Origin: an uncultured Chloroflexia bacterium
GTDB lineage: Bacteria; Chloroflexota; UBA6077; JACCZL01
Direction: 5' to 3'
NCBI GenBank assembly: GCA_963765765.1
Contig: CAVXYC010000023.1
Coordinates: forward strand, 384,001-448,000
DNA: 64,000 nt
Position numbers and translations under genes: made by a program
The notes under the pieces: generated by a model
The model's input: the letters and a program-made list of their open reading frames with translations, nothing else
The model's database searches: none
What the model was told of the DNA's origin: nothing
In this document: positions 3,800 through 59,636 of the stretch, one piece after another
How positions within the stretch are numbered: the first letter of the stretch is position 1
Layout of the letters: every line of letters begins with the position of its first letter

Positions 3800-4905
3800 A
3801 TGCGGCGAGGCGGGACACCCCGAATCCGGGTCGAGGTATTGTCCCGAGCTGCCGTGGTACTGACGCTCCTCCTGCTGCTTCTTCCAACGCCCCGTGGCAC
3901 CGCCGACGAGCTCCAAGTAGCGGTCGACCCGGCGACGGATTCAGTCACTCCCGCCGCGTCGGTCGGAATTACCTGTCTTTCGGCCGCTCAAATTTCGTTT
4001 TATCCGCCAGCTCCGCAGCCGGAGCGCGTCGTTCGGATCGATGTCCTCGCGCCATTTTGGTCCGCGCAGGTTATGCTCTTGAGCTCACTTCCTCTGTACT
4101 TTGAGAGTGAGCTCCAGGAATGGAACGGGTATCGGTGGAGCTGGTTCACCTGGTCTGCCGAGCCAGGGCGAGCTCGAATTTACGTTCCTCGATTCGGTGC
4201 GCTCCGAATGCGCCACGGCCAGGCTCTTCATTGGGCAGACTCCTGACATGGTCGTCGATGACACGGTCCCGGCCGATGGCATCGGAGCGGTCAGCCCGGC
4301 CGATAGCATCGGACCGGTCAGCACAGAGCCTTACAAGCCGACAGCGACGCGGACCCCGCGCGCGGCCTCTTCGAACGGCTCTAATGATTCTGATGATAAT
4401 GACAATACGTCTACCACCTCGGGGCGTGATCCGACGGCAACACGCACACCGTCACCGACCCGCACGGCATCACCTACTCGAACACCATCGCCTACGCGAA
4501 CATCGTCGCCCCCTCGAATCAACGGGCTCGAGGACCTCGTTTGCCAGCCAACCGCCCGAGCCCACCGAAACACGCACGCCGTCCCCCACACGGACATCAT
4601 CCCCCACGCGCACGCCCTCGCCGAGGGCTACGGACACCCCGCAACCGAACGTTATAAGCACGGACCCAGTCTCGGCCATCTGTGGCAACACGCTGACCAT
4701 CAAAGGCCGGGGATTCGGAGCCAGCCGAGTCGCCGTTGATGGCAAGGTCACCTTGGCTGCCCGCGAGGTATCTGCCTATGAGAGCTGGAGTGACACAGAG
4801 ATCCGTGTGGTTGTTTCGCCCAACACGCCGCCTGCTGCAGAACAGCGGTTGGAGGTAACCACGCGCGGCGGAGGGGACGGGCTGGGCATCAGGGTTTCCT
4901 GCTAG
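3800..4905 (+). CDS. Secreted Thr/Pro-rich protein with C-terminal IPT/TIG-like domain (split over three frames)
   Basis: Signal-like LTLLLLLL in 3800..4246, (TRTPSP)n repeats in 4101..4739 and 4120..4905, C-terminal LTIKGRGFG...SWSDTEIRVVV. Two inferred indels. Confidence 0.65.
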
Positions 4906-48357: not shown

Positions 48358-50001
48358 ATGGAGTGGATGACGGGCGGCGAGGCGCTGGTTCGATCGCTCA
48401 AAGCCAACGGCGTGCGCGTCATATTTGGACTTCCCGGGGTTCAGCTTTACGGCGTCATGGCCGCGCTGCGCGACGAGCCTTCGATCCGATTCATCAATAC
48501 GCGCAACGAGCAGGCAACCACCTACATGGCCGATGGCTATGCGCGCTCCAGCGGTCATGTCGGCGTAGCGTTCGTCGTCCCCGGCCAGGGAATCCTGAAT
48601 GCCTCTACCGGACTCAGCACCGCTTATGCGGCGTCTTCTCCCGTACTGCTGATAGCTGGCCAGGTTCCACGCGGGCAGATCGGCAAGAAGATGGGCTTGC
48701 TGCATGAGATCGACGATCAGCAAGGCGCCATTGCCAGTATCACCAAGTGGCGGCAGCGTGCCACCGAGGTAGAAGAAGTGCCGGCCATGGTGCGTGACGC
48801 GTTCAGTCAATTGCTGAGCGGACGACCCCGTCCGGTCGAGATCGAGATGCCGCCCGAGACGATGGAGGATGATGGCGAAGCTGAGCTGGTGGGACCCGCC
48901 ACGTTCGGTAGGCAGGCTGCCTCCGAGAGCGACATCCACCACGCAGCCGAAACGCTTCTACGGGCAGATCGAGTGATGATCTATGCTGGCGGCGGAGCCA
49001 TTGGCTCGAACGCGGGTGAGGTAATCGCGGCATTGGCGAAGCACCTTCAGGCTGGCATCGCCACTTCGCCCGAGGGCAAAGGCATCATTGATGAGCGCAG
49101 CGAGCTGTCGTTGGGCTCCGGCGTCTTTCCCACCTCCGCGTTGAACGCCTACGGCGCCACCTGCGATGTCATTCTGGCCGTGGGCACGCGTCTGGTGCGG
49201 CCGCCATTCGGTCCGGATCAGCGTGTCATTCACGTGGATATTGATGCTGACGAGATGGGTCGGCAGCATGCCAATACGATGCCGCTCATTGGCGACGCGC
49301 GGCTCACACTCGAGAAGCTACTGGAGCACGTGCGGGATGGCGGTACACCACGCGCATCGCGCTCGGAAGAGCGAGCCGCTGTGCGCGAGGCTGTGGCGTC
49401 GGCCGACACGCGCGAGCCGAACTCGTCCATCACGAAGAGCCTGCGAGCCGGTACTCCTGAAGACGCCATCGTGATCGCCGGGATGACGCAGATCGGCTAC
49501 TACTCGCGCACGTTCTGGCCCGCCTACGCGCCGCGTACCTATCTGACCTCTAGCTACTCCGGGAATCTCGGCTTCGAGTGGCCAACGGCCCTGGGCGCCA
49601 AGGTGGCCAATCCGGACACGCCGGTGATCGCCATCGTGGGTGATGGCGGCTTCCTGTACAACGCCAACGAGATGGCCACGGCCGTGCAGCACGGTATCAA
49701 CGCCGTGGCCGTGGTCTTCAATGACGGTGCCTACGGCAATGTGGCGCGCGACCTGGACGAGGAATGGGGTGGTAGCTACGGCGCCGACCTACAAAACCCC
49801 GACTTTGTAAAGCTGGCCGACGCCTACGGCGCTCTTGGCCTGCGAGCCGAGCAGCCGACGGATGTCGGCCGCCTGGTGCAGGAAGCGCTGCAGGCCAACC
49901 GCCCGGCCATCGTGGAAGTTCCGGTCCCGCGTATGGCTCGGCCCGTGACCTTCGCCGGCGGTCGCAAACCCGTGCGCCATCCCTCACGGAGCGGAAGTTG
50001 A
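48358..50001 (+). CDS. Thiamine-diphosphate-dependent enzyme (acetolactate synthase-like)
   Basis: IFGLPGVQ, RNEQ, GDGGFLY...VFND ThDP motif. Confidence 0.92.
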   Translation: MEWMTGGEALVRSLKANGVRVIFGLPGVQLYGVMAALRDEPSIRFINTRNEQATTYMADGYARSSGHVGVAFVVPGQGILNASTGLSTAYAASSPVLLIAGQVPRGQIGKKMGLLHEIDDQQGAIASITKWRQRATEVEEVPAMVRDAFSQLLSGRPRPVEIEMPPETMEDDGEAELVGPATFGRQAASESDIHHAAETLLRADRVMIYAGGGAIGSNAGEVIAALAKHLQAGIATSPEGKGIIDERSELSLGSGVFPTSALNAYGATCDVILAVGTRLVRPPFGPDQRVIHVDIDADEMGRQHANTMPLIGDARLTLEKLLEHVRDGGTPRASRSEERAAVREAVASADTREPNSSITKSLRAGTPEDAIVIAGMTQIGYYSRTFWPAYAPRTYLTSSYSGNLGFEWPTALGAKVANPDTPVIAIVGDGGFLYNANEMATAVQHGINAVAVVFNDGAYGNVARDLDEEWGGSYGADLQNPDFVKLADAYGALGLRAEQPTDVGRLVQEALQANRPAIVEVPVPRMARPVTFAGGRKPVRHPSRSGS

Positions 50002-50003
50002 CG

Positions 50004-50160
50004 ATGCTTGTAGTGAGCGCTTCAGCGCTTTTCCGGCGAACACCTCAAGCCAGCACAGCGATGCGGCCGACGGATTCATGAGTGGGCCGAACGTGGCCGG
50101 ATCCAGTGGTCTATGCCGATGCGTTCGCCGAAAAAGCGCTAAAGCGCTCACTACAAGCAT
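50004..50160. repeat. Inverted REP doublet (REPIN-like)
   Basis: ATGCTTGTAGTGAGCGCTTCAGCGCTTTTCCGGCGAAC (50004-50041) pairs with GTTCGCCGAAAAAGCGCTAAAGCGCTCACTACAAGCAT (50123-50160). Confidence 0.9.
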
Positions 50161-50175
50161 TGCGACGCCGCAATC

Positions 50176-51165
50176 ATGAAAACCCTCATCGTCGACCTCA
50201 CCGAGCGCCTCGAGATGGTTGCGCTGCCCATACCGGAAGAGCTCGAGGCAACGTATTCCGACTGGACGACACTGGCGGACCTGGCTCCCAGACTGGCCGA
50301 CGCCGAGGCGCTGTTTTGCACGCCGCTCGTGCCGATTGACACGGAATTTCTAAACGCAGCGCCAAAGCTACGCGTCATCCAGCTCCAGAGTGCCGGGTAC
50401 GACAAGGTTGACCTGGCAGCCACGCGGGCACGCGGCATTCCCGTGTCTCACGCACCCAATGCCAACGGCGCTACGGTGGCCGAGCACGTCTTCATGGTCA
50501 GCATGGCGCTCCAGCGACAGCTCTTCGACTCGCATCGGAGCATCGTTGAAGGCAAGTACCAGGACATGAAGTGGGCCATCATGCGCCACGGCAATTTCGA
50601 GCTGATGTCCAAGACACTCGGGATCGTGGGATTCGGCCGGATTGGTCGGCAGGTGGCCAAGCGCGCCGCCGCGTTCGACATGCAGACGATCTACTACGAC
50701 ATCGTTCGCGCGAGTCCCGAGGACGAAGAGCGCTTCCAGGTGACTTACTGCGACACGATGGATGAAGTGCTCCGTCGTGCGGACATCCTCACGGTTCACA
50801 CGATCCTGGACGAGTCCACCTACCACCTTATCGGCGAGGAGGAGCTGTCCATGGTGAAGCCCTCCGTGCTGGTGCTCAACGCGGCGCGCGGTCCCGTGGT
50901 GGATCCCGCGGCACTGGCGGATGCGCTGAAATCGGGACGCGTGGCCGGCGCGGCAGTGGACGTCTTCGAGACGGAGCCCGCCCCCGCGGACGACCCGCTG
51001 GTACAGCTCGCGAAATCCGGCTTCGAGCGGCTCATTCTCACACCGCACGTGGCCGGCATCACCGATGCGGCGCAATACCGCGCGCTGAAGCACGCCCTGG
51101 AGAACCTGGTGCGGTTCACGCGGGGCGAGAAGCTGCTGGATGTCTGTAACGGAGTCACGCAGTGA
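50176..51165 (+). CDS. D-isomer-specific 2-hydroxyacid dehydrogenase
   Basis: GIVGFGRIG, NAARG, DVFETEP, TPHVAG. Confidence 0.95.
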   Translation: MKTLIVDLTERLEMVALPIPEELEATYSDWTTLADLAPRLADAEALFCTPLVPIDTEFLNAAPKLRVIQLQSAGYDKVDLAATRARGIPVSHAPNANGATVAEHVFMVSMALQRQLFDSHRSIVEGKYQDMKWAIMRHGNFELMSKTLGIVGFGRIGRQVAKRAAAFDMQTIYYDIVRASPEDEERFQVTYCDTMDEVLRRADILTVHTILDESTYHLIGEEELSMVKPSVLVLNAARGPVVDPAALADALKSGRVAGAAVDVFETEPAPADDPLVQLAKSGFERLILTPHVAGITDAAQYRALKHALENLVRFTRGEKLLDVCNGVTQ

Positions 51166-51238
51166 TCCCGAACCAGCGTGACCGGTTCTCACCCGCCGAA
51201 TTCTCGGTATCTAGAAAACAAACTATCGACGCGGCATC

Positions 51239-51319
51239 TGTCATCCTGAGTGCAGCGAAGGATCTTCCCCACCGTAATCGATCACGGTGGGAAGATCCTT
51301 CGCTGCACTCAGGATGACA
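51239..51319. repeat. Long near-perfect inverted repeat element
   Basis: TGTCATCCTGAGTGCAGCGAAGGATCTTCCC...GGGAAGATCCTTCGCTGCACTCAGGATGACA (31-bp arms). Confidence 0.95.
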
Positions 51320-51412
51320 ACTTCCGAAATCGCGGTCCGCCATGGCGAATCGCTTCGACCGAACACTTGGCGCGCCTCTTGACGCGCTTGATTTCATAGG
51401 GGACGTGAGACG

Positions 51413-52405
51413 ATGAAGACTCTTGTCATTGGCCTGACGGATCGATTGGAGCGGGCAAACCTGCCGGTACCGGCCGGGTTGGAGCTGCAATACGCGGAGA
51501 TGCTCTCTGCGGATGAGCTCGCGCCACAGCTTGGTTGGGCAGAGGCAATCTTTACGAATCCGCGCGTGACCATTGACGACAATTTCTTGAGCAAAGCACC
51601 GAACCTCAAGTTCATTCAGCTTTCCAGCGCCGGCTTCGAGCGGATCGACGTCGATGCCATTCAACGACGCGGCGTCATCGTCGCCAACTCGTCCGGCCAG
51701 AACGCCGACGCCGTGGCGGAGTGGACGCTGATGTGCATGCTGGCGCTTCAGCGTGAGCTGCTCCCCAGCCATCGCGCGCTCAGCGATGGCAAATACGTCG
51801 CGTTCAAGGACGATCAGATGGCGCGCGGCCTGCCCGAGCTGGGCGGCAAGACGCTGGGCATCATCGGGCTGGGGAACGTCGGCAAGCGGGTGGCTCGTCG
51901 TGCCAAGGCGTTCAACACCGAGACGATTTACTACGACATCGTTCGTCCCTCTGCCGAAGAAGAGAAGGAGCTCGGCGTCACCTACTGTGACACAATGGAT
52001 GAGGTGCTGCGCCGAGCAGACATCCTGACCGTGCACGTGCCGTGGACGCAGGAGACCTTCCACCTGGTGGGTGAGGAGGAGCTGAGCATGCTCAAACCTG
52101 GAGCGCTGGTTATCAACGCCGCGCGCGGCCCGCTGGTGGACCCAGTGCCGCTGGCCAAAATGCTCAGAGAGGAGCGACTTGCCGGCGCCGCCCTGGACGT
52201 CTTCGAGACGGAGCCCGCTCCCGACGCGGACCCGATCATTCAGCTCGCCGCCAGCGGCTTCGCCAATTTGCTGGTCACCCCGCACATGGCCGGCGTCACC
52301 CGAGAAGCGCAGCTCAACACGCTGAGCCATTCATTAGAAAACCTCGCTCGCGTCGCGCGCGGCGAGCAGCCCACCACTATTTGCATCGGCCCGAAGGGCC
52401 AGTGA
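51413..52405 (+). CDS. D-isomer-specific 2-hydroxyacid dehydrogenase, tandem paralog
   Basis: GIIGLGNVG, NAARG, TPHMAG; shares YCDTMDEVLRRADILTVH with the upstream copy. Confidence 0.95.
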   Translation: MKTLVIGLTDRLERANLPVPAGLELQYAEMLSADELAPQLGWAEAIFTNPRVTIDDNFLSKAPNLKFIQLSSAGFERIDVDAIQRRGVIVANSSGQNADAVAEWTLMCMLALQRELLPSHRALSDGKYVAFKDDQMARGLPELGGKTLGIIGLGNVGKRVARRAKAFNTETIYYDIVRPSAEEEKELGVTYCDTMDEVLRRADILTVHVPWTQETFHLVGEEELSMLKPGALVINAARGPLVDPVPLAKMLREERLAGAALDVFETEPAPDADPIIQLAASGFANLLVTPHMAGVTREAQLNTLSHSLENLARVARGEQPTTICIGPKGQ

Positions 52406-52470
52406 AGAGTGAAAAGTTAAGAGTGAAGAATTGGATCCCACTCTTAACTCTTCACTCATAACTCTTAACT
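52401..52470. repeat. Inverted arrays of heptamer tandem repeats (GAGTGAA-type)
   Basis: AGTGAA GAGTGAA AAGTTAA GAGTGAA ... CTCTTAA CTCTTCA CTCATAA CTCTTAA; includes the upstream stop codon. Confidence 0.85.
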
Positions 52471-52486
52471 GATCCGGAGGATCACC

Positions 52487-54129
52487 ATGAAAGTCGCCGC
52501 GGCAATCGCCGAGATTTTGAAGCTCGAGGGGATCGATACGATCTGCGGATACCCCGTGAACGGCGTGTTGGAAGCTGGCGCGGCGGCGGGCATCCGGCCG
52601 GTCATCGTGCGTCAGGAGCGCACCGGTCTGCACATGGCGGACGCTATGAGCCGCCAGAGCAGCGGCGAAAAAGTCGGCATCTTCTGCATGCAGTACGGCC
52701 CAGGCACTGAGAACGCCTTTGGTGGCGTGGCCCAGGCGTACAGCGAGGCCGTGCCGACTGGTAGTCATCCCCGGCGGGTATCCGCGCGGACAGGCCAATG
52801 TGCGCCCCAGCTTCAGCGCCGTGCTGAATTTCCAGCACGTGACCAAGTCGGTCGAGACGCTCACCAGCACGGAGCAGCTCGTTCCGATGATGCGGCGAGC
52901 GTTCACTCAGGCCAAGAACGGCCGACCCGGGACCACCATGGTCGAGATCCCGCAGGACATGTGGACCGAAGACGTGCCGGAGCCGCTCAACTACATCCCC
53001 ACGCGGAAGATCCGCACCGCGCCCGATCCTGACGACGTGCGACGCGCCGCCGAAGCCCTGGTGGCCGCGCAGCGACCCGTCCTGTACGCGGGTCAGGGTG
53101 TCCACTATTCCAAGGCCTGGGCCGCGTTCAAAGAGCTCGCCGAGCTGCTGGAAGCACCCGTGACCACCAGCCTGGAAGGCAAGAGCGCCTTCCCTGAGAA
53201 CCATCCGCTGTATCTGGGCGCGGGCGGTCGAGCGCATCCGGGGCCGGTCCATCGCTTCCTGGCTGATGCGGACATTATCTGCGGTATCGGCGCCAGCTAC
53301 GGCGCCACGTCATTCGGCGTGCAGATTCCGCGTCGGCAAGACGCTCATCCAGAACACCATCGATCCGATGGACATCAACAAGAATCACCCGACGGCGTTC
53401 CCGCTGGTGGGCGATGCCAGGCTCACTCTCGAAGCGCTCGTCGCGGAAGTGCGGGACCGCCTGGGTGACAAGCCGCGCGGTCGAGCCAATGAGATCGCGG
53501 CAAGCATCAAGTCCATGCGCGCCTCGTGGCTCGAAGCATGGATGCCCAAGCTAACCGATGCGTCCACTCCCATCTCACCGTACCGCGTGCTCTGGGATCT
53601 GCTGCACACCGTGGACGTGCCAAACACCATGCTCACGCACGATGCCGGCAGCCCGCGCGATCAAATCAGCCCGTTCTGGGAAGCGATAACGCCAAACAGC
53701 TACATCGGCTGGGGCAAGAGCACCCAGCTCGGCTACGGCCTGGGCCTGGCCATGGGCGCCAAGCTGGCGAATCCCGACAAGCTGTGCATGAACTTCTGGG
53801 GCGACGCCGCGATCGGCTTCACCGGCATGGACTTCGAAACGACTGTACGTGAGCGTATCCCAATCATGTCAGTGCTCTCCAACAACTTCAGCATGGCCAT
53901 CGAGCTCCCCGTGATGCCCGTCTCCACCGAGAGCTACCGCGCCACCGACATCAGCGGCAACTACGCCGAGTTCGCCAAAGCCCTCGGCGGCTACGGCGAG
54001 CGCGTCACCGATCCCAACGAGATCGTCCCCGCCATCAAGCGCGGCATCGAGAAGACCCAGGAAGGGACCCCCGTGCTGCTGGAGTTCATTACCCAGAAGG
54101 AGACGAAGACCTCGGTGTTCTCCAGCTAG
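52487..54129 (+). CDS. Thiamine-diphosphate-dependent enzyme (two frameshifts)
   Basis: VRQERTG.HMADA, QYGPG, HDAGSPRDQ, GDAAIGFTGMD...NN; pieces 52487.., 52719.., 53266... Confidence 0.9.
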
Positions 54130-54242
54130 TTGCGAACGAATTGACGCCGCTGTTGAAGAGCGGCAGTCGCGAACGGAATCACGCCGCTGATCACAGCTAG
54201 TTGCGACTAATCGACGCCGCTGTTCAACAGCGGCGTCAATTC
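54123..54242. repeat. Compound palindromic element
   Basis: Perfect 20-bp inverted repeat GAATTGACGCCGCTGTTGAA (54138-54157)/TTCAACAGCGGCGTCAATTC (54223-54242); internal direct repeat CAGCTAGTTGCGA (54123, 54194); each arm is part of a self-complementary unit. Confidence 0.9.
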
Positions 54243-54245
54243 AAC

Positions 54246-54270
54246 TTGCAGCAATGCCAGAGTGCCGCTC
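54246..54270 (+). repeat. 25-bp direct repeat, copy 1
   Basis: TTGCAGCAATGCCAGAGTGCCGCTC; one mismatch to 54782..54806. Confidence 0.9.
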
Positions 54271-54509
54271 AGGTGGGGAGGGACATGAGGGTGATGGACA
54301 TGGCTATCTGGCATGAAGAACATGGCGGATCTATGGGAGACATGGTGAAAAGCTTGTCGCAGTTGAATAAGGCTGAAGTGTTCGTGGCGCTCGCGTATTA
54401 CTGGGAATATAGTGAAGAGCTTGAAGTCAAGGAAGACACAGGCGAAGCTAAGGACAGAGAGATAAAGTTTGGGCTTATGGAGATGTTAACTTTTAGATCA
54501 CTTGGCTGA
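54271..54509 (+). pseudogene. 5'-truncated, heavily substituted DUF433-type antitoxin
   Basis: MRVMDMAIWHE...QLNKAEVFVALAYYWEYSEE resembles the DUF433 pattern (IRVMDI..W...PQL..ADV.AALAYY.DHREE). Confidence 0.8.
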
Positions 54510-54781
54510 AGTCAGATTTCAACTCGAAGAGCATATTGATTCAGCAATAGAGTCAGGGTTGATCAGTCGGGGATTCAGGCTGAGACAACAGCGGCTCTGG
54601 GTCTCTGCGGGGACAGAGAAGAGACACAATTGGAGGCAGCTTTTGAAGGAGGTAGAGTGGTAGTCACTTTAGATTTAGATTTACACCACTTGCATCACGC
54701 GGGAGCGCAGCATATCGGAATTGTTTAACTGCCTCGACCTAACCGCAGGATCGGGCGAGTCATTGAGTGTCTGCTGATGAT
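54502..54781 (+). pseudogene. 3'-truncated, heavily substituted DUF5615 PIN-like toxin
   Basis: By hand: (M)AEVRFQLEEHIDSAIESGLISR/GIQAETTAALGLCGDREETQLEAAFEGGRVVVTLDLDL..LH.AGAQHIGIV*; frameshift at G-run near 54570, TAA at 54726. Confidence 0.8.
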
Positions 54782-54806
54782 TTGCAGCTATGCCAGAGTG
54801 CCGCTC
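54782..54806 (+). repeat. 25-bp direct repeat, copy 2
   Basis: TTGCAGCTATGCCAGAGTGCCGCTC. Confidence 0.9.
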
Positions 54807-54826
54807 GGCCTCGGGCCGCGAGATCT

Positions 54827-55395
54827 ATGCCTCAACCGCGGGATTGGCACGGGATGTGGGAGATGTCCGCACGGCTCTTGAGAGAGCGGACAGGCGAAGA
54901 CGTGGACGCCTGGAATCGGCGCGTGAAGGAGCACGACCCGGTCGATGAGGCAGCTCTCCGCGCGTGGCTGAATGAGCAGGGTGTCTCGGGCTACCCCCAG
55001 TCACTCCTGGTGATGGAGCGACTTCGGGTATCCGGATTTCCTGACTGCCTCGGCCGACGAGCTGATCGATGGCCAGTACAAAGATCGAGAGCAGCTTCGG
55101 CCGATTTTCGATGCGATTGTCACCGCGGCGGCATCGCTAGAAGGCGTCGAGGTGCAGGCGCGCAAGACCTACGTCTCGTTGATCACGCCGCGGCGCACGT
55201 TCGCTCGCGTTCAGGCCACCACGCGCAATCGCCTGGATCTTGGGCTGCGGCTGGAGAAGGACTCACCAGGCGGCCGCCTCACGCCCTCCAGGATCCACCC
55301 GACGATGCCGCTTCAAATCAGCTTCAGTAGTCTCGAGGAGCTGGACGACGAAGCGCTCGAGTCGGCTGCAGAAGGCGTACAGCGAGAATCTCTAG
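54827..55395 (+). CDS. DUF5655-type protein (frameshifted)
   Basis: LRERTGEDVDAW...AWLNEQGVSGY; RKTYVSLITPRRTFARVQATTRNRLDLGLRL; ends LQKAYSENL*. Confidence 0.75.
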
Positions 55396-55724
55396 GGCAA
55401 CGTTCCAAACACAATATTCGCGAACGCGGCTCTCAGCCACCTTCTTTACTTCTCATGCTTCAGACCTCTTTATGGACACATTGCGGCAGACTGCATTCCG
55501 GATTACCCCACTAATCCGTGTCAGCCCGAGACGCTCCAGGCGCCAACACTCCAGGCGCCTGGGGCCCACTCCGATGAACACTGATGCGGCTGGATTTCCA
55601 GAGCACTTCTTACTGGGTAGTGGCGTGTTCATGGGAGGGGCGAGGGATCGCATCCGACATCCGGGAGCTCTAGTGTCGGAAGCCGGTCGCACCATCGCGA
55701 TGTCGGAAGGCTCCGATGTCCGGT

Positions 55725-55750
55725 GAGATCCCTCGTCCCTCGGGATGACA
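55725..55750 (+). repeat. Diverged half-copy of the 51239..51319 element
   Basis: GAGATCCCTCGTCCCTCGGGATGACA resembles the right arm AGATCCTTCG...CTCAGGATGACA. Confidence 0.6.
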
Positions 55751-55900
55751 GGGAAACTGGTGGCGCGCTTCGTCACGGGTGTTCATCGTGCGGTGGGTGC
55801 GGTGGCCCAAGGAATACTTCTGCAGGACAAGGAGATAGGCTCTCCGTGTGAAATTCCTGACACGATCTGCCAGGAGTTTGTGGCAAGCTGAAGGCGAGCC

Positions 55901-57056
55901 ATGCCCGACGTCATTCGCGTTTCCCGAGAACAAGCGCTTGCGTTCAGACTCTCAGGCCACCATCTGGCGAAGCGAGAGCCACTGGAATCGCTGGAGAAGG
56001 TCGCGGCCGCATGCGGCGTACGAAACACTCCGCCAGGCTCGGCGGCGCTGGGGCTGCTGGCCCGGTTGGATGGGCTGACGCCGGAGGATTTCGATGCGGC
56101 GCTCGACGCGAAGGGCGAGCTTGTCGAAGTGCTGAGCGTGCGTATCTCTCCGTTGCTGGCTCCCAGGCGTGACGTCGACGTTTTCACGACCGGTGCGTTG
56201 CCGCGCACGGATGCCTCGCTCGAATCGTCGCTGGTGAATTTCAAGGCGGCGCTGAAGGATGCCATGGTCACACCCGCTGAAGGGCTCGAGTTAGCTGTCT
56301 CGGCAGCAAACGATGCTCTGGCAGACGGCGGACTCACACGAGGAGAGCTGAGCGCGGCGATCACCCAGAAGCTACCCGAGCCGCTCACGGCGTGGTGTCC
56401 GGGCTGTAAGGTTCACCATGTGCCAGAGACGCTCTTCCGCCTTGTGGGCGTTCACGGTGCGTTCGTGATCTCCCGCCAGGGCAAACAGTCCACCTACGTG
56501 CGCGCCGATCGGGTGCTCGGGAAGCGACGGAAGTCAAACGCCACGAAAGTACGCGCCGAGCTGCTGCGTCGATACATGCGCTGCTTCGGACCGAGCACCG
56601 CGGCGGATTTTGGCGCGTGGGTGGGTATCCCCGCATCGGAAGCGAAGGAGGACTGGGACCGGCTTGCCGATGATCTTGTGGAGGTGGACCTGAACGGACG
56701 CCAGGCCTGGATTCTCACGGATGATGCGAAGATTCTGAGTCGATCCGCCGTCGGCAGAAGGTGTCCGACTCCTGCCTCCATACGATGCGTACCTGGACCA
56801 GCGAGACCGTACTACGCTGATTCCCGATAAGTCGCTCCAACGCCGGGTCTGGCGAGCCATCGGCAATCCAGGCGTTGTCCTGCGCGGCGGCGTGGCTGTT
56901 GGCACATGGCGGACCCAGAAGAAGGGCAAGCGGCTCGCCCTGACGGTGGAACCGTTCGCCGAGCTCTCTGCACGGGCCAGGCGTGAGATCGCGGACGAGG
57001 CGGAGCTGCTCGGGCCGTTTCGCGAGTGCACCCAAGTTGAGACGGCTTTCCAATGA
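55901..57056 (+). CDS. AlkZ/YcaQ-like (HTH_42) winged-helix protein (frameshift near 56750)
   Basis: EQALAFRLSGHHL, LLRRYMRCFGPST.ADFGAWVG, RLLPPYDAYL, NPGVVL...VGTWR. Confidence 0.85.
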
Positions 57057-58171
57057 GCCCGGCGGTCCTGAAACCGGGTGACACGCTAACCGTCGCCCAA
57101 CTCAATAGGGCCTTACTCGCTCGACAACATCTGCTGATGCGTAGCCAATTGACGGCGGCCGAGATGATCGAGCATCTGGCTGGCATGCAGGCCCAGGTGC
57201 CCAACTCGCCGTACGTCGGCTTGTGGTCGCGCATCGAGCAATTCAAGGCGTCTGAGCTGGCGGACATGGTGAGGCAGCGCCAGGCCGTGAGGCTGTCGCT
57301 CATGCGCCAGACGTTGCATCTGGTCACCGCGCGGGATTGTCTCTGGATGCGGCCCGTGATGCAGGCCACGCTGCATCATGGACTCTTCGTGGGCAGCGTG
57401 TTTCGACAGGGCCTTGTTAACGTCGATATCGATGAGGTCGTCCAGCTTGGCCGATCGCTCGTCGAAGAGCGGCCTCTTACGATGACCGAAGTGCGCGCCG
57501 TGTTTAAGGAACGCTGGCCTGAGCGCAATGCCGAGTCGCTCGCGGCGGCGGTGTACTACCTGCTGCCGATGATCCAGGTGCCGCCCCGCGGGGTGTGGGG
57601 GCAAGGCGGACTGCCCCGCTGCACCACAGCGGAATGCTGGCTTGGCCAACCGCTCTCCCAGGAGACCGAGCCGGACCCTCTTATCTTGCGCTATCTGGCG
57701 GCGTTCGGCCCCGCGACAGTGGCCGACGTTCAAGCCTGGTCCGGGCTGCGCACCCTCAGCGAGCCGATCAATCGGCTTCGCCCGCTGCTGGTGACCTTCA
57801 AAGACGAGCGAGGACGGGAGTTGTTCGATATTCCGGATGGACCGCGACCGGACTCCAGCGTCGCGGCGCCTGTACGCTTTCTGCCAGAGTACGACAATCT
57901 TCTCCTGGCGTACGCGGACCGCTCACGCGTCATACCGGAACACTTCCGCAGGATCATCTCGACGAGTCTGGGTCGTCCGACATTTCTGATGGATGGATTC
58001 GTCGCGGGGTTCTGGAATGTCTCTAAGGGCAAGCAGAACGCCACTCTCCAGATCGAGTCGTTGGACAAGCTTTCGAAGCGACACCAGGCGCAGCTCGATC
58101 GAGAGGGAAAAAGACTGCTTACGTTTATCGCACCCGATGCTGCTAAGCAAACCGTTTTGTTCAATATATAA
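57053..58171 (+). CDS. AlkZ family DNA glycosylase (HTH_42)
   Basis: LNRALLARQHLL, GMQAQ (QxQ), MRQTLHLV, RYLAAFGPATVAD..AWSG, FLPEYDNLLL. Confidence 0.9.
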   Translation: MSPAVLKPGDTLTVAQLNRALLARQHLLMRSQLTAAEMIEHLAGMQAQVPNSPYVGLWSRIEQFKASELADMVRQRQAVRLSLMRQTLHLVTARDCLWMRPVMQATLHHGLFVGSVFRQGLVNVDIDEVVQLGRSLVEERPLTMTEVRAVFKERWPERNAESLAAAVYYLLPMIQVPPRGVWGQGGLPRCTTAECWLGQPLSQETEPDPLILRYLAAFGPATVADVQAWSGLRTLSEPINRLRPLLVTFKDERGRELFDIPDGPRPDSSVAAPVRFLPEYDNLLLAYADRSRVIPEHFRRIISTSLGRPTFLMDGFVAGFWNVSKGKQNATLQIESLDKLSKRHQAQLDREGKRLLTFIAPDAAKQTVLFNI

Positions 58172-58320
58172 GAACAAAATCGCTTGGCTCGGACGCTTCC
58201 CTTCACGACTGAGCCCGCGCGGACGTACAGTGCTAGCACTAGCACCAAGCACGCAGGGGGCGATCGTACTCACGCGTCAGCTGTGGTTGCTCTAGCCTGG
58301 AAACCTCAGGAGGACCCGAC

Positions 58321-59636
58321 ATGTTGAGTCGAGAAGACAACGAGCTGCTGTGCCGCACCGGCCCCGGAACACCCATGGGCGAGCTGTTCCGCCGCTTCTG
58401 GCTGCCGGCCATGCTGGCCAGCGACCTGCCCGGCCCCGATTCTGAGCCCTGGCGCCTGCAGATCCTCGGCGAGCGGCTCGTCGCCTTTCGCGACACCAAC
58501 GGCGAAGGTCGGCATCCTGGATCGGCACTGCCCGCATCGGCTGGCCGACCTGTGGTTCGGCCGGAACGAGGAGAGCGGGCTGACTTGCGCCTACCACGGC
58601 TGGAAGTTCGACGTCGAGGGCAACACGGTCAGCATGCCGACCGAACCGGCCGACAGCGACTTCAAGGAGCGCTTGAAGATCAAGAACTATCCGGCCAAGG
58701 AGTTCGGCGGGGTGGTGTGGGTCTACATGGGGCCCAAGGAGCTGGAGCCGGAGCTCCCGCAGTTCGAGTGGGCGCGAATTGCCGACGACCAGCGGTGCAT
58801 TCGGAGCTGGATGCAGGAATCGAACTATATGCAGGCGGCCGAGGGCGAGATCGACTCGGCTCACGTGAGCTTCAACCACCGCTGGTTCAATCCCGATGAC
58901 CAGCCGGCCGGCGCTCCGCCAGACGAACCGTACCAATACCAAAGGCACGGTGGTGAACTGGCAGGATGGCGCTCCGCGTCTCACTGTCAAGGAGACTGAC
59001 TACGGGATGATGTACGGCTCTCGCCGCCAGACTGGTGACAATGAGTATTACTGGCGCTGCACGCAGTTCATGCTTCCGTTCTACAGTCTTATCCCCCAGC
59101 CAAAGTATCCCCGCGGCGGCCGCTGTTGGGTGCCGATGGACGACGAGCACTGCACTGTGTTCCAGTACAACCATCATCCCGATCGAGCGATGACGGAGCA
59201 GGAGCGCTTTCGGGCCAGCTCCAGTCCGGAGGGGCTCACCAAGCAGGTCTACAAGCTGCCCGGGGACCGCACGCTGATCGATTGCTGGCGCCCGCGCCGT
59301 ATCCGCGACAACGATTACTTGATCGATCGCGAGATGCAGCGCACCCAGAACTTCACCGGCATTGCCTCAGGTCGAGAGCAGGACATGGCGATGACGGATG
59401 GGATGGGCTTCATTCCGGAGCGCTGGCGGGAGCACCTCGGGACTACCGATGTCGCAATCATCGCCGCGCGTAGGATTCTTCTGAAGGCTGCGCGCGACCT
59501 TCAGAACGGCATCGAGCCATACGCGCCACACCATGGCGACCTCTATCATATTCGTCCGATCGACGTGATCAGCGAAGACGATGAGTTCGATGCGCTGCTG
59601 GAGCGGCACGGAGATATGGCAGCGGCGCGCATCTAG
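58321..59636 (+). CDS. Rieske non-heme iron oxygenase, paralog of 16415..17706 (two frameshifts)
   Basis: GPGTPMGELFRRFW, HCPHR...CAYHGW, NYMQAAEGEIDSAHVSFNH, EQDMAMTDGMG. Confidence 0.9.

Follow-up and report, generated by a model that had tools for sequence, protein, structure and literature searches.

A cytosine-depleted DUF433/DUF5615 operon fragment between direct repeats in a soil bacterial chromosome: a possible capture-linked mutation cluster

Clusters of strand-coordinated mutations are well known from eukaryotic cells (for example PMC11230362, PMC3542020). In kataegis and in the clusters that follow damage to single-stranded DNA in yeast and human cancers, a base of one strand is changed many times over a few hundred bases. 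There C goes to T, G and A, as expected from deamination or alkylation plus abasic-site bypass, and an association with DNA breaks has been proposed. In Sinorhizobium meliloti, experiments have shown that NHEJ captures heterologous DNA at chromosomal double-strand breaks, and a non-homologous fragment enters the break without a transposase or an integrase (PMC6379672). DGRs mutate template adenines to any other base in a localised, base-specific manner, for which they need a reverse transcriptase, an accessory protein and a TR/VR pair. We describe here a bacterial locus that shares features with each of these systems: an operon fragment, enclosed by direct repeats beside a palindrome, in which one strand has lost about half of its cytosines.

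The locus belongs to a 6.49-Mb MAG of a soil bacterium (91.8% complete, 6.85% contaminated), in which the insert and its repeats are located inside a 484-kb contig. Positions refer to the window, the whole stretch of 64,000 nucleotides that was analysed. A preliminary description, made from this DNA alone, had reported the order palindrome, first repeat, 511 bp of insert and second repeat, and its coordinates and counts were reproduced exactly (Table 1). The two repeats agree at 24 of 25 positions, with an A/T change as the sole difference. The two arms of the palindrome, at 54138-54164 and 54216-54242, show 96% complementarity. As single-stranded DNA, the element folds at -47.3 kcal/mol (z = -6.5), which was matched by none of 200 shuffles, and it shows no terminator-like T run. 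The proposed genome search for the 25-bp repeat and the palindrome found both to be unique, with no further copies of the repeats or of parts of the palindrome in the genome when up to 4-5 mismatches were allowed.

Table 1. Features of the locus, in window coordinates
Feature	Coordinates	Strand	Remarks
Thiamine-pyrophosphate (TPP) enzyme gene	52484..54129	+	Upstream context; three frames, two frameshifts
Compound palindrome	54123..54242	.	120 nt; inverted repeats I1 and I2 with internal direct repeats; hairpin of ~105 nt
Direct repeat 1	54246..54270	+	Duplicated target; 8/8 cytosines kept
Cytosine-depleted tract	54266..54686	+	Zero CC; GG = 42-44
Insert, doubly truncated DUF433/DUF5615 operon fragment	54271..54781	+	511 bp; alignments, phmmer
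DUF433 C-terminal part, frame 1	54276..54509	+	Lacks roughly the first 25-45 residues; natural TGA end; alignment A1
DUF5615 N-terminal part, frame 2	54508..54573	+	Followed by a frameshift near 54573; alignment A2, hmmalign
DUF5615 continuation, frame 1	54573..54782	+	Interrupted by an in-frame TAA (54726-54728); final ~16 residues missing
Direct repeat 2	54782..54806	+	The ATG at 54827 lies 21 nt downstream
Downstream ORFs	54827..55514	+	Two frames; assigned to no family (DUF5655 only at E 0.12); context

The upstream gene carries Pfam TPP_enzyme_C on 53266-54129 (E 3.9e-23), and tblastn with the intact 579-aa protein of a relative returns HSPs in frames 2, 3 and 1. Synteny with the 40 relatives searched ends at ~54121, and the spacer is common to none of them. 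An Rfam scan of 50000-59000 gave nothing beyond two chance-level eukaryotic miRNA rows, and the promoter and terminator scan returned 0 and 0. None of the public runs contains the stretch (best word share 0.07). Contigs from four runs cover only the gene ends and include one partial relative. The palindrome and the repeats lie outside their cover and the junctions are spanned by none of them, which speaks neither for nor against the presence of the structure; 54810-55000 is covered by near-identical short contigs from two soil/rhizosphere runs.

The insert had been described as an internal piece of a DUF433/DUF5615 operon cut at both ends, and the alignments of the two genes bear this out. The DUF433 alignment begins at the G-x-R-I-R-V motif and reaches the natural stop; that of DUF5615 extends from ~residue 4 to ~residue 95 of ~111. 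The DUF5615 profile scores 26.4 bits (cut-off 23.8) over 54561-54770, one TAA included, and a 32-aa piece alone stays under the cut-off with 16.7 bits. The Pfam DUF433 profile has no match on the insert, where the N-terminal part of the domain is missing; phmmer nevertheless matches this part to two proteins that are both Pfam DUF433 (P0007 and P0012; 40-43% identity, E 1e-6 to 1e-3). The best matches of the DUF5615 part (P0003-P0005) are 44-47% identical. The gene order, DUF433 directly followed by DUF5615, is that of 49 of the 80 related loci fetched from genome contigs. The insert shows clear in-frame homology, and a single frameshift over 507 nt sets it apart from sequence of raw-read quality. 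Truncated twice, frameshifted and carrying a nonsense codon, it is non-functional.

A close source of the fragment did not emerge from the searches. The best protein identity in an exhaustive phmmer search of 1.84 billion representatives was 40-48%. With alignment A1 as query, the best identity was 45% in genome contigs and 48% among the matches listed for metagenome contigs; a single protein as query found no match in the latter. In a search for homologous proteins, the DUF433 piece retrieved itself alone, and 0 of 76 candidates passed for the DUF5615 piece against longer proteins. At the nucleotide level, blastn and tblastx against its own genome returned the insert alone, the best match in the 40 relatives was at chance level (E 0.006), and blastn against plasmids and phages gave no match.

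The hand counts of the preliminary description, 56 C and 133 G for 54271-54660 and ~24% C for 54691-54780, could be repeated: the former segment holds A113, C56, G133 and T88 (C 14.4%, G 34.1%; GC skew 0.41), and the latter 22 C in 90 nt (24.4%). The smooth fade with distance from the palindrome, proposed on the same basis, did not hold up: counts of C in 60-nt steps vary from 6 to 13 across the tract, with a stepwise recovery after ~54686, and the final ~95 nt of the insert show no depletion of C. The patch skew of 0.406 is the most extreme positive value among the 259,348 300-nt windows of the genome, whose 99.99th percentile is 0.304, and of the two inspected patches that exceed it in absolute skew, one is a tandem repeat and the other a low-complexity stretch rich in C. 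The depleted tract is also the longest CC-free run of the genome, with 421 nt compared with 221 nt for the next non-repeat run. Only 1 of 20,000 shuffles reached zero CC, and the 49 intact homologous operons that served as controls contain 26.6 CC on average and at least 6. Over the 507 nt homologous to these operons, the insert skew is 0.31, compared with a mean of 0.014 (sd 0.072, maximum 0.25) in the operons. Where the genome is locally low in GC, long open reading frames reach an absolute skew of ~0.2-0.3, and composition alone is thus not decisive. Enrichment of CsrA-type GGA was considered and rejected (16 observed, ~14.5 expected from composition by our own arithmetic).

The substitution spectrum was obtained at obligate sites, those codon positions where the amino acid shared by at least 50% of the 49 intact operons leaves no choice of base. 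At these sites the insert has lost C at 15 of 27, G at 8 of 64, A at 6 of 33 and T at 8 of 39, and the difference between C and G is significant (Fisher p = 4e-5). Controls lose 0.19 ± 0.09 of their C (maximum 0.39) and 0.124 ± 0.038 of their G. The C-minus-G loss gap is 0.43 in the insert, 0.21 at most among the 49 controls, and 0.16 in L107, the most skewed control in this comparison (skew 0.29). By our tally of the per-site table, ~50-60% of the obligate C is lost in each quarter of the insert. Overall, the insert departs from the consensus at 42 of 92 sites (controls, 20% ± 6), and the columns changed include some that are 96-100% conserved in the controls (I>M, L>K, A>V, D>E and L>H), which marks the changes as unselected. 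The cytosine deficit is a derived, strand-specific loss. The individual changes named earlier against the family consensus (FQLEEH, AEV, YWEYS, ATG for Ile, TTA for Phe and TAA for Tyr) are all present in the per-site table. The accompanying claim, that departures fall mainly at + strand C, stands in that C was hit and G was spared. Strict C-exclusivity is not supported: in the tract alone (~415 nt), losses are C 12/22, G 4/53, T 7/32 and A 6/28, with T and A above the controls. The pattern is closer to pyrimidine-to-purine change with C dominant than to change at C alone.

The nearest relative in nucleotide sequence is a 479-nt contig from a soil-metagenome run (X1), which matches 54289-54406 with 82% identity over 118 nt and 21 differences. 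Of these differences, 14 are listed: 8 of them have C and none has G in the contig, whereas in the window C stands at 1 and G at 7. Two of the 14 show A in the relative, and 3 are T-to-purine changes. At six of the listed sites, the residue encoded by the contig is that of the consensus (I, D, I, F, P and T). Both the consensus table and this contig confirm that cytosines went to A, T and G, beyond T alone, as had been proposed. Over the 118 nt, with 14 of the 21 differences taken into account, the relative has a GC content of ~0.51 and a skew of 0.17, compared with 0.40 in the window, so that ~40% of the local skew is already found in it.

Loss of about half of the cytosines of one strand with the guanines kept points to one-strand damage or error-prone copying before or during capture. 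The best reading of the locus, which we regard as nearly an even call, is a strand-coordinated mutation cluster that arose on the fragment either before its capture at a DNA break or in the course of it. According to this reading, a foreign or ectopic piece of a DUF433/DUF5615 (PIN-like) toxin-antitoxin operon would have been captured in the spacer that separates two genes of the + strand, next to the hairpin-forming palindrome, with duplication of 25 bp of target. The fragment, or the part of it that forms the tract, may have been single-stranded or damaged on one strand. Candidate lesions would be cytosine deamination or alkylation giving rise to abasic sites, or alternatively damage to the guanines of the complementary strand by oxidation, alkylation or depurination. 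The lesions might then have been fixed by error-prone fill-in or translesion synthesis during end-joining into a chromosomal break. From the left junction onward, over ~415 nt, this would have turned about half of the + strand C (- strand G) into A, T or G and removed every CC, leaving + strand G at the family background rate. The data show the anatomy of the locus, the derived loss specific to C, the sharp left boundary and the uniqueness in the genome; we infer that a break occurred, that the DNA was single-stranded, which lesions it bore and which kind of polymerase acted on them. The palindrome beside the site, the sharp left boundary and the absence of CC are indirect hints of an origin in single-stranded DNA at a break or fork. 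If a break at the palindrome were resected 5' to 3', the strand laid bare would be the - and not the + strand, so that this geometry fits only with lesions on - strand purines. The genome encodes the proteins for end-joining, with one Ku match (E 5e-43) and two ligD_pol matches over the cut-off of 214.7 (243 and 221 bits). The earlier suggestion of a capture-linked process gains support from repeat 1, which adjoins the tract and kept all its cytosines, so that the changes should predate or accompany capture rather than have accumulated later in place. At a 55% loss rate, our arithmetic puts the chance of such retention at ~0.002.

Part of the signal is inherited, given the skew of the X1 relative itself and the correlation between skew and C-minus-G loss gap among the controls (r = 0.57). 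It is conceivable, though unlikely, that inherited composition and ordinary decay explain the whole of it, the fragment having come from a donor replicon with a strongly purine-loaded coding or leading strand, or having decayed there as a pseudogene under strand-asymmetric mutation bias, as in a rolling-circle or single-stranded replicon, and its capture having involved no special event. The most skewed intact homologue (0.25) and the long open reading frames in low-GC parts of the genome speak for such a donor. The insert gap, however, is twice the control maximum, and L107, in spite of its skew, stays far below it. In addition, G loss in the insert is at or below the functional background although 30-35% of the highly conserved columns are changed, no control has fewer than 6 CC, and the six consensus-restoring differences to the X1 relative are derived in the window. 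A gradual loss in place, by transcription- or replication-linked strand-biased damage or repair after insertion, is highly improbable. A non-functional insert between co-oriented genes, in a region of positive local cumulative skew, would be exposed to it, but it should also have stripped repeat 1, which differs from repeat 2 by the single A/T change, and the palindrome, which retains 28% C. The upstream + strand gene has negative GC skew, and the end of the insert is not depleted.

A dedicated system, either DGR-like retro-insertion by a reverse transcriptase misincorporating at template C or a defence acting on incoming DNA that was later fixed (a single-strand cytosine deaminase or dCTP depletion), would account for the depletion of the mRNA-sense strand, the change of C into all three other bases, the elimination of CC and the sharp left boundary, as the tract begins exactly at the junction. 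We consider it quite improbable. The genome, 91.8% complete, has 0 RVT_1 matches at E <= 0.001 and no second, template-like copy of the insert, and the base targeted is not A (C 15/27, A 6/33); these results do not support the resemblance to DGR-style mutagenesis drawn in the preliminary description, and a DGR-like origin is unsupported. Titles and abstract openings of the DGR papers surveyed mention no mutagenesis at bases other than adenine. The cluster is also a single instance: other extreme-skew patches of the genome, being repeats or containing long open reading frames, were rejected as further cases, and the three other skewed non-repeat patches inspected contain long open reading frames or are repeats, with no fragment among them that looked decayed or hypermutated. 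To an artefact of assembly or sequencing, in the form of a chimeric join or an unpolished low-coverage patch, we give very little credence. The contamination of the MAG, the frameshifts in both genes neighbouring the insert and the lack of a public run with the stretch would fit an artefact. The in-frame homology with a single indel, the near-identical flanking repeats within a large contig and the partial relative in an independent run (X1) argue against it, and we know of no platform error mode that removes C but not G on one strand.

If real, the fragment records the physical state of DNA in illegitimate capture, with one strand damaged or copied in an error-prone manner. Horizontally captured DNA could then arrive heavily mutated already, which would affect the age of pseudogenes and the identity of donors as deduced from divergence and composition. 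A broader idea, which we rate as a long shot, is that soil bacteria hypermutate incoming or captured DNA at the C of one strand, especially CC, to any base. For example, a single-strand cytosine deaminase or a nucleotide-pool defence would act on DNA that enters by transformation or conjugation, and the abasic sites would then be bypassed. Such a process would be a prokaryotic analogue of APOBEC-type restriction, and the fragment would have survived it and become fixed. Titles and abstract openings in the literature searched include no natural, fixed strand-coordinated mutation cluster in a bacterial chromosome. Long CC-free or GG-free runs in recognisable gene fragments with flanking repeats offer a signature by which metagenomes can be searched.

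Among mobile elements, a transposable element or MITE was rejected, as the repeats and the palindrome are unique in the genome and the insert encodes the operon fragment alone; the genome has 3 Y1/HUH transposase matches, none of them near (nearest Y1, 88 kb off). An integron cassette was likewise rejected, with a best integrase_gron score of 49.5 bits against a cut-off of 265 and a single-copy palindrome. The insert shares gene order and overlap with DUF433/DUF5615 (PIN-like) two-gene modules, but it differs from the intact ones in its two truncations, its frameshift, its nonsense codon and its low identity. From DGRs it differs in that C is changed, without a reverse transcriptase or a second copy. 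With the capture in S. meliloti it shares a host that has Ku and LigD; deletions at the insert ends are described there, and the passages available mention neither a 25-bp target duplication nor a mutation cluster in the insert (PMC6379672). The likeness to kataegis lies in the many same-strand changes of one base, seen at the obligate sites of the tract as C against G and in the X1 comparison as 8 C losses against 1 C gain. The kataegis cases are eukaryotic or engineered, whereas the changes here lie in a bacterial chromosome, are fixed and are confined to a fragment that appears foreign and captured; CC rather than TC is apparently eliminated, and T and A are somewhat affected too. With these differences, the cluster at this locus would correspond, in a bacterium, to the kataegis described from yeast and human cells.

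The two 25-bp direct repeats enclose 511 bp (54271-54781) in which DUF433 has no N-terminus and DUF5615 stops ~16 residues short of its end. This insert is therefore an internal piece of a DUF433/DUF5615 operon, as the preliminary description had recognized. A profile search scores its DUF5615 part at 26.4 bits (cut-off 23.8), and the Pfam DUF433 model has no match on it. Among 1.84 billion representatives searched exhaustively with phmmer, 35 proteins reached E ≤ 0.001, including the window's own ORF; the closest others are 40-48% identical to the insert, and all 10 matches checked against Pfam are DUF433 or DUF5615. A DUF5615 ORF (E < 1e-20) lies directly 3' of the DUF433 match in 49 of 80 related loci on genome contigs. 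The 49 intact homologous operons used as controls leave out loci L037, L055 and L110, whose match does not start at locus position 1501. Three further DUF433/DUF5615 modules of the host genome (contig positions C19:259210-259727, C28:9635-10227 and C19:55383-55801, the last with its DUF433 match in two pieces) have ordinary composition (GC 0.54-0.59, skew -0.06 to 0.01) and no DNA-level similarity to the insert.

Features of the insert and its surroundings
Feature	Position	Remarks
Thiamine-pyrophosphate enzyme gene	52484-54129	upstream of palindrome
Compound palindrome	54123-54242	arms 54138-54164 and 54216-54242, 96% complementary
Inner hairpin of palindrome	54209-54241	16-nt
Direct repeat 1	54246-54270	25 bp; differs from repeat 2 by one A/T
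DUF433-type C-terminal half	54276 to TGA at 54507	frame 1
DUF5615 (PIN-like) start	after DUF433 part	frame 2; frameshift near 54573
DUF5615 continuation	~54573 to insert's right end	frame 1; in-frame TAA at 54726
Direct repeat 2	54782-54806	25 bp; 21 nt 5' of ATG at 54827
Downstream ORF	54827-55514	opens at ATG 54827; no assigned family
AlkZ-like DNA glycosylase gene 1	55901-56830	PF06224, E 1.3e-32, profile positions 2-232 of 329 only
AlkZ-like DNA glycosylase gene 2	57053-58171	PF06224, E 3.2e-82

With 91.8% completeness and 6.85% contamination, the host assembly (6.49 Mb, 33 contigs, 61.2% GC), in which the window occupies C23:384001-448000, is a metagenome-assembled genome. As single-stranded DNA, the palindrome is predicted to fold at -47.3 kcal/mol (z = -6.5). 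Searching the genome for repeat and palindrome, as the preliminary description had suggested, gave no other copy with 4-5 mismatches allowed. The thiamine-pyrophosphate enzyme gene falls into three frames when matched to a relative's intact 579-aa protein, with two frameshifts (near 52760-52830 and 53334), and either is a pseudogene or bears assembly indel errors. The downstream ORF switches frame near 55020-55150 and shows only sub-threshold similarity to DUF5655 (E 0.12).

The insert has a deficit of C on the + strand. The 56 C and 133 G counted earlier in 54271-54660 are exact, and this patch has the highest positive GC skew (0.406) among 259,348 300-nt windows of the whole genome; the two inspected patches that exceed it in absolute skew proved to be a tandem repeat and a low-complexity stretch rich in C. 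Controls have a mean skew of 0.014 (sd 0.072) and a maximum of 0.25, the latter in a cyanobacterial copy at 36% GC; across the 507 nt with homology to them, the insert reaches 0.31. The 421 nt at 54266-54686 contain no CC and form the genome's longest CC-free run, ahead of a 318-nt simple repeat and a run of 221 nt. GG occurs 42-44 times in this tract, while the homologous 412 nt of the controls hold a mean of 26.6 CC (minimum 6). When the tract was shuffled 20,000 times, a sequence free of CC arose only once. The surviving C follow G (22), T (18) or A (16), never C. Elsewhere, extreme skew marks a tandem repeat with a PLTPNP-type peptide unit (C14:291426-291950) and a ~320-nt triplet repeat encoding poly-Asp or poly-Ser (C18:72343-72660); the window's second most skewed patch is 4291-4700 (C 40%, G 23%, skew -0.27).

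Aligning the insert to the intact operons and scoring loss by base, restricted to codon bases fixed by the consensus amino acid in columns with at least 50% control agreement, places the loss mainly at C, in line with the preliminary description. The insert has lost 15 of 27 C (controls 0.19 ± 0.09, maximum 0.39) and 8 of 64 G (0.124 ± 0.038; Fisher's test for C versus G in the insert, p = 4e-5), together with 6 of 33 A (0.098) and 8 of 39 T (0.073). Up to 54685 the losses are C 12/22, G 4/53, A 6/28 and T 7/32; right of it, C 3/5 and G 4/11. The gap between C and G loss is 0.43, compared with 0.21 at most in controls and 0.16 in the most skewed one (L107). The insert departs from consensus at 42 of 92 sites (controls 20% ± 6), including columns 96-100% conserved among controls, so the changes were unselected, yet G was spared.

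None of the public sequencing runs contained the stretch. A 479-nt contig from X1, one of four soil/rhizosphere runs compared, is 82% identical to 54289-54406, with 21 differences. At the 14 listed, the X1 contig has C 8, T 4, A 2 and G 0, and the window G 7, A 4, T 2 and C 1. Six differences in frame 1 give X1 the family-consensus residue (I, D, I, F, P, T) where the window has M, G, M, L, S and N, so the window copy is the derived state. From X1 to window the listed changes are C>G 4, C>A 2, C>T 2, T>A 2, T>G 1, T>C 1 and A>G 2. Computed from these 14 of 21 changes, X1 has skew 0.17 and GC 0.51 over the shared stretch (window skew 0.40); part of the bias was therefore inherited. In two other such runs (X2, X3), short contigs are 97.6-99.3% identical to 54810-55000.

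Neither symmetric drift nor a donor of low GC can account for this pattern, as the preliminary description had objected: C is halved and highly conserved residues have gone, yet loss of G stays at the functional background. The intact repeat 1, in which all 8 C survive as in repeat 2, contradicts asymmetric decay in place after insertion. Since the tract starts at the junction of repeat 1 and insert, and C is back to normal (24%) over the insert's final ~95 nt, the process hit the fragment, not the locus; instead of the smooth fade from the palindrome first described, the right end is step-like. An assembly or sequencing artefact is unlikely because the 507 nt of homology stay in frame but for one indel, and the insert is bracketed by the repeats within a 484-kb contig.

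What fits best is a cluster of strand-coordinated mutations, gained at a time when the fragment existed as a single strand or had damage to one of its two strands. This reading comes from one instance, and is weakened by that, by the partly inherited skew, by the raised T and A losses, and by the |skew| of up to 0.2-0.3 in other low-GC patches with long open reading frames in the genome. One such patch (C9:7261-8440, 46% GC, frame on the - strand; + strand C 18% and G 28%, with C 14-16% in two subpatches) shows that |skew| near 0.3 is possible for long open frames here; it may be a foreign island.

The neighbours of the insert are metabolic genes. The preliminary description had looked for a reverse transcriptase in the window; extended to the genome, this search gave no RVT_1 match. 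Nor did the genome yield a second copy of the insert usable as template or an integron integrase above cut-off, and the nearest of its three Y1 transposase matches is 88 kb off. AlkZ-like enzymes excise alkyl-guanine and crosslink lesions, and two such genes stand in tandem ~1.1 kb downstream of the insert; that they lie so near a tract with - strand guanines lost is probably a coincidence. The genome carries one Ku, two LigD polymerase domains over cut-off and one ComEC.

In a strand-coordinated cluster, lesions at + strand C or - strand G, which fit equally well, might have been fixed by an error-prone polymerase, either ahead of the fragment's capture at a putative DNA break or in the course of it. 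Bacterial NHEJ is documented to capture heterologous DNA (PMC6379672), and strand-coordinated mutation clusters are documented in yeast and human cells.
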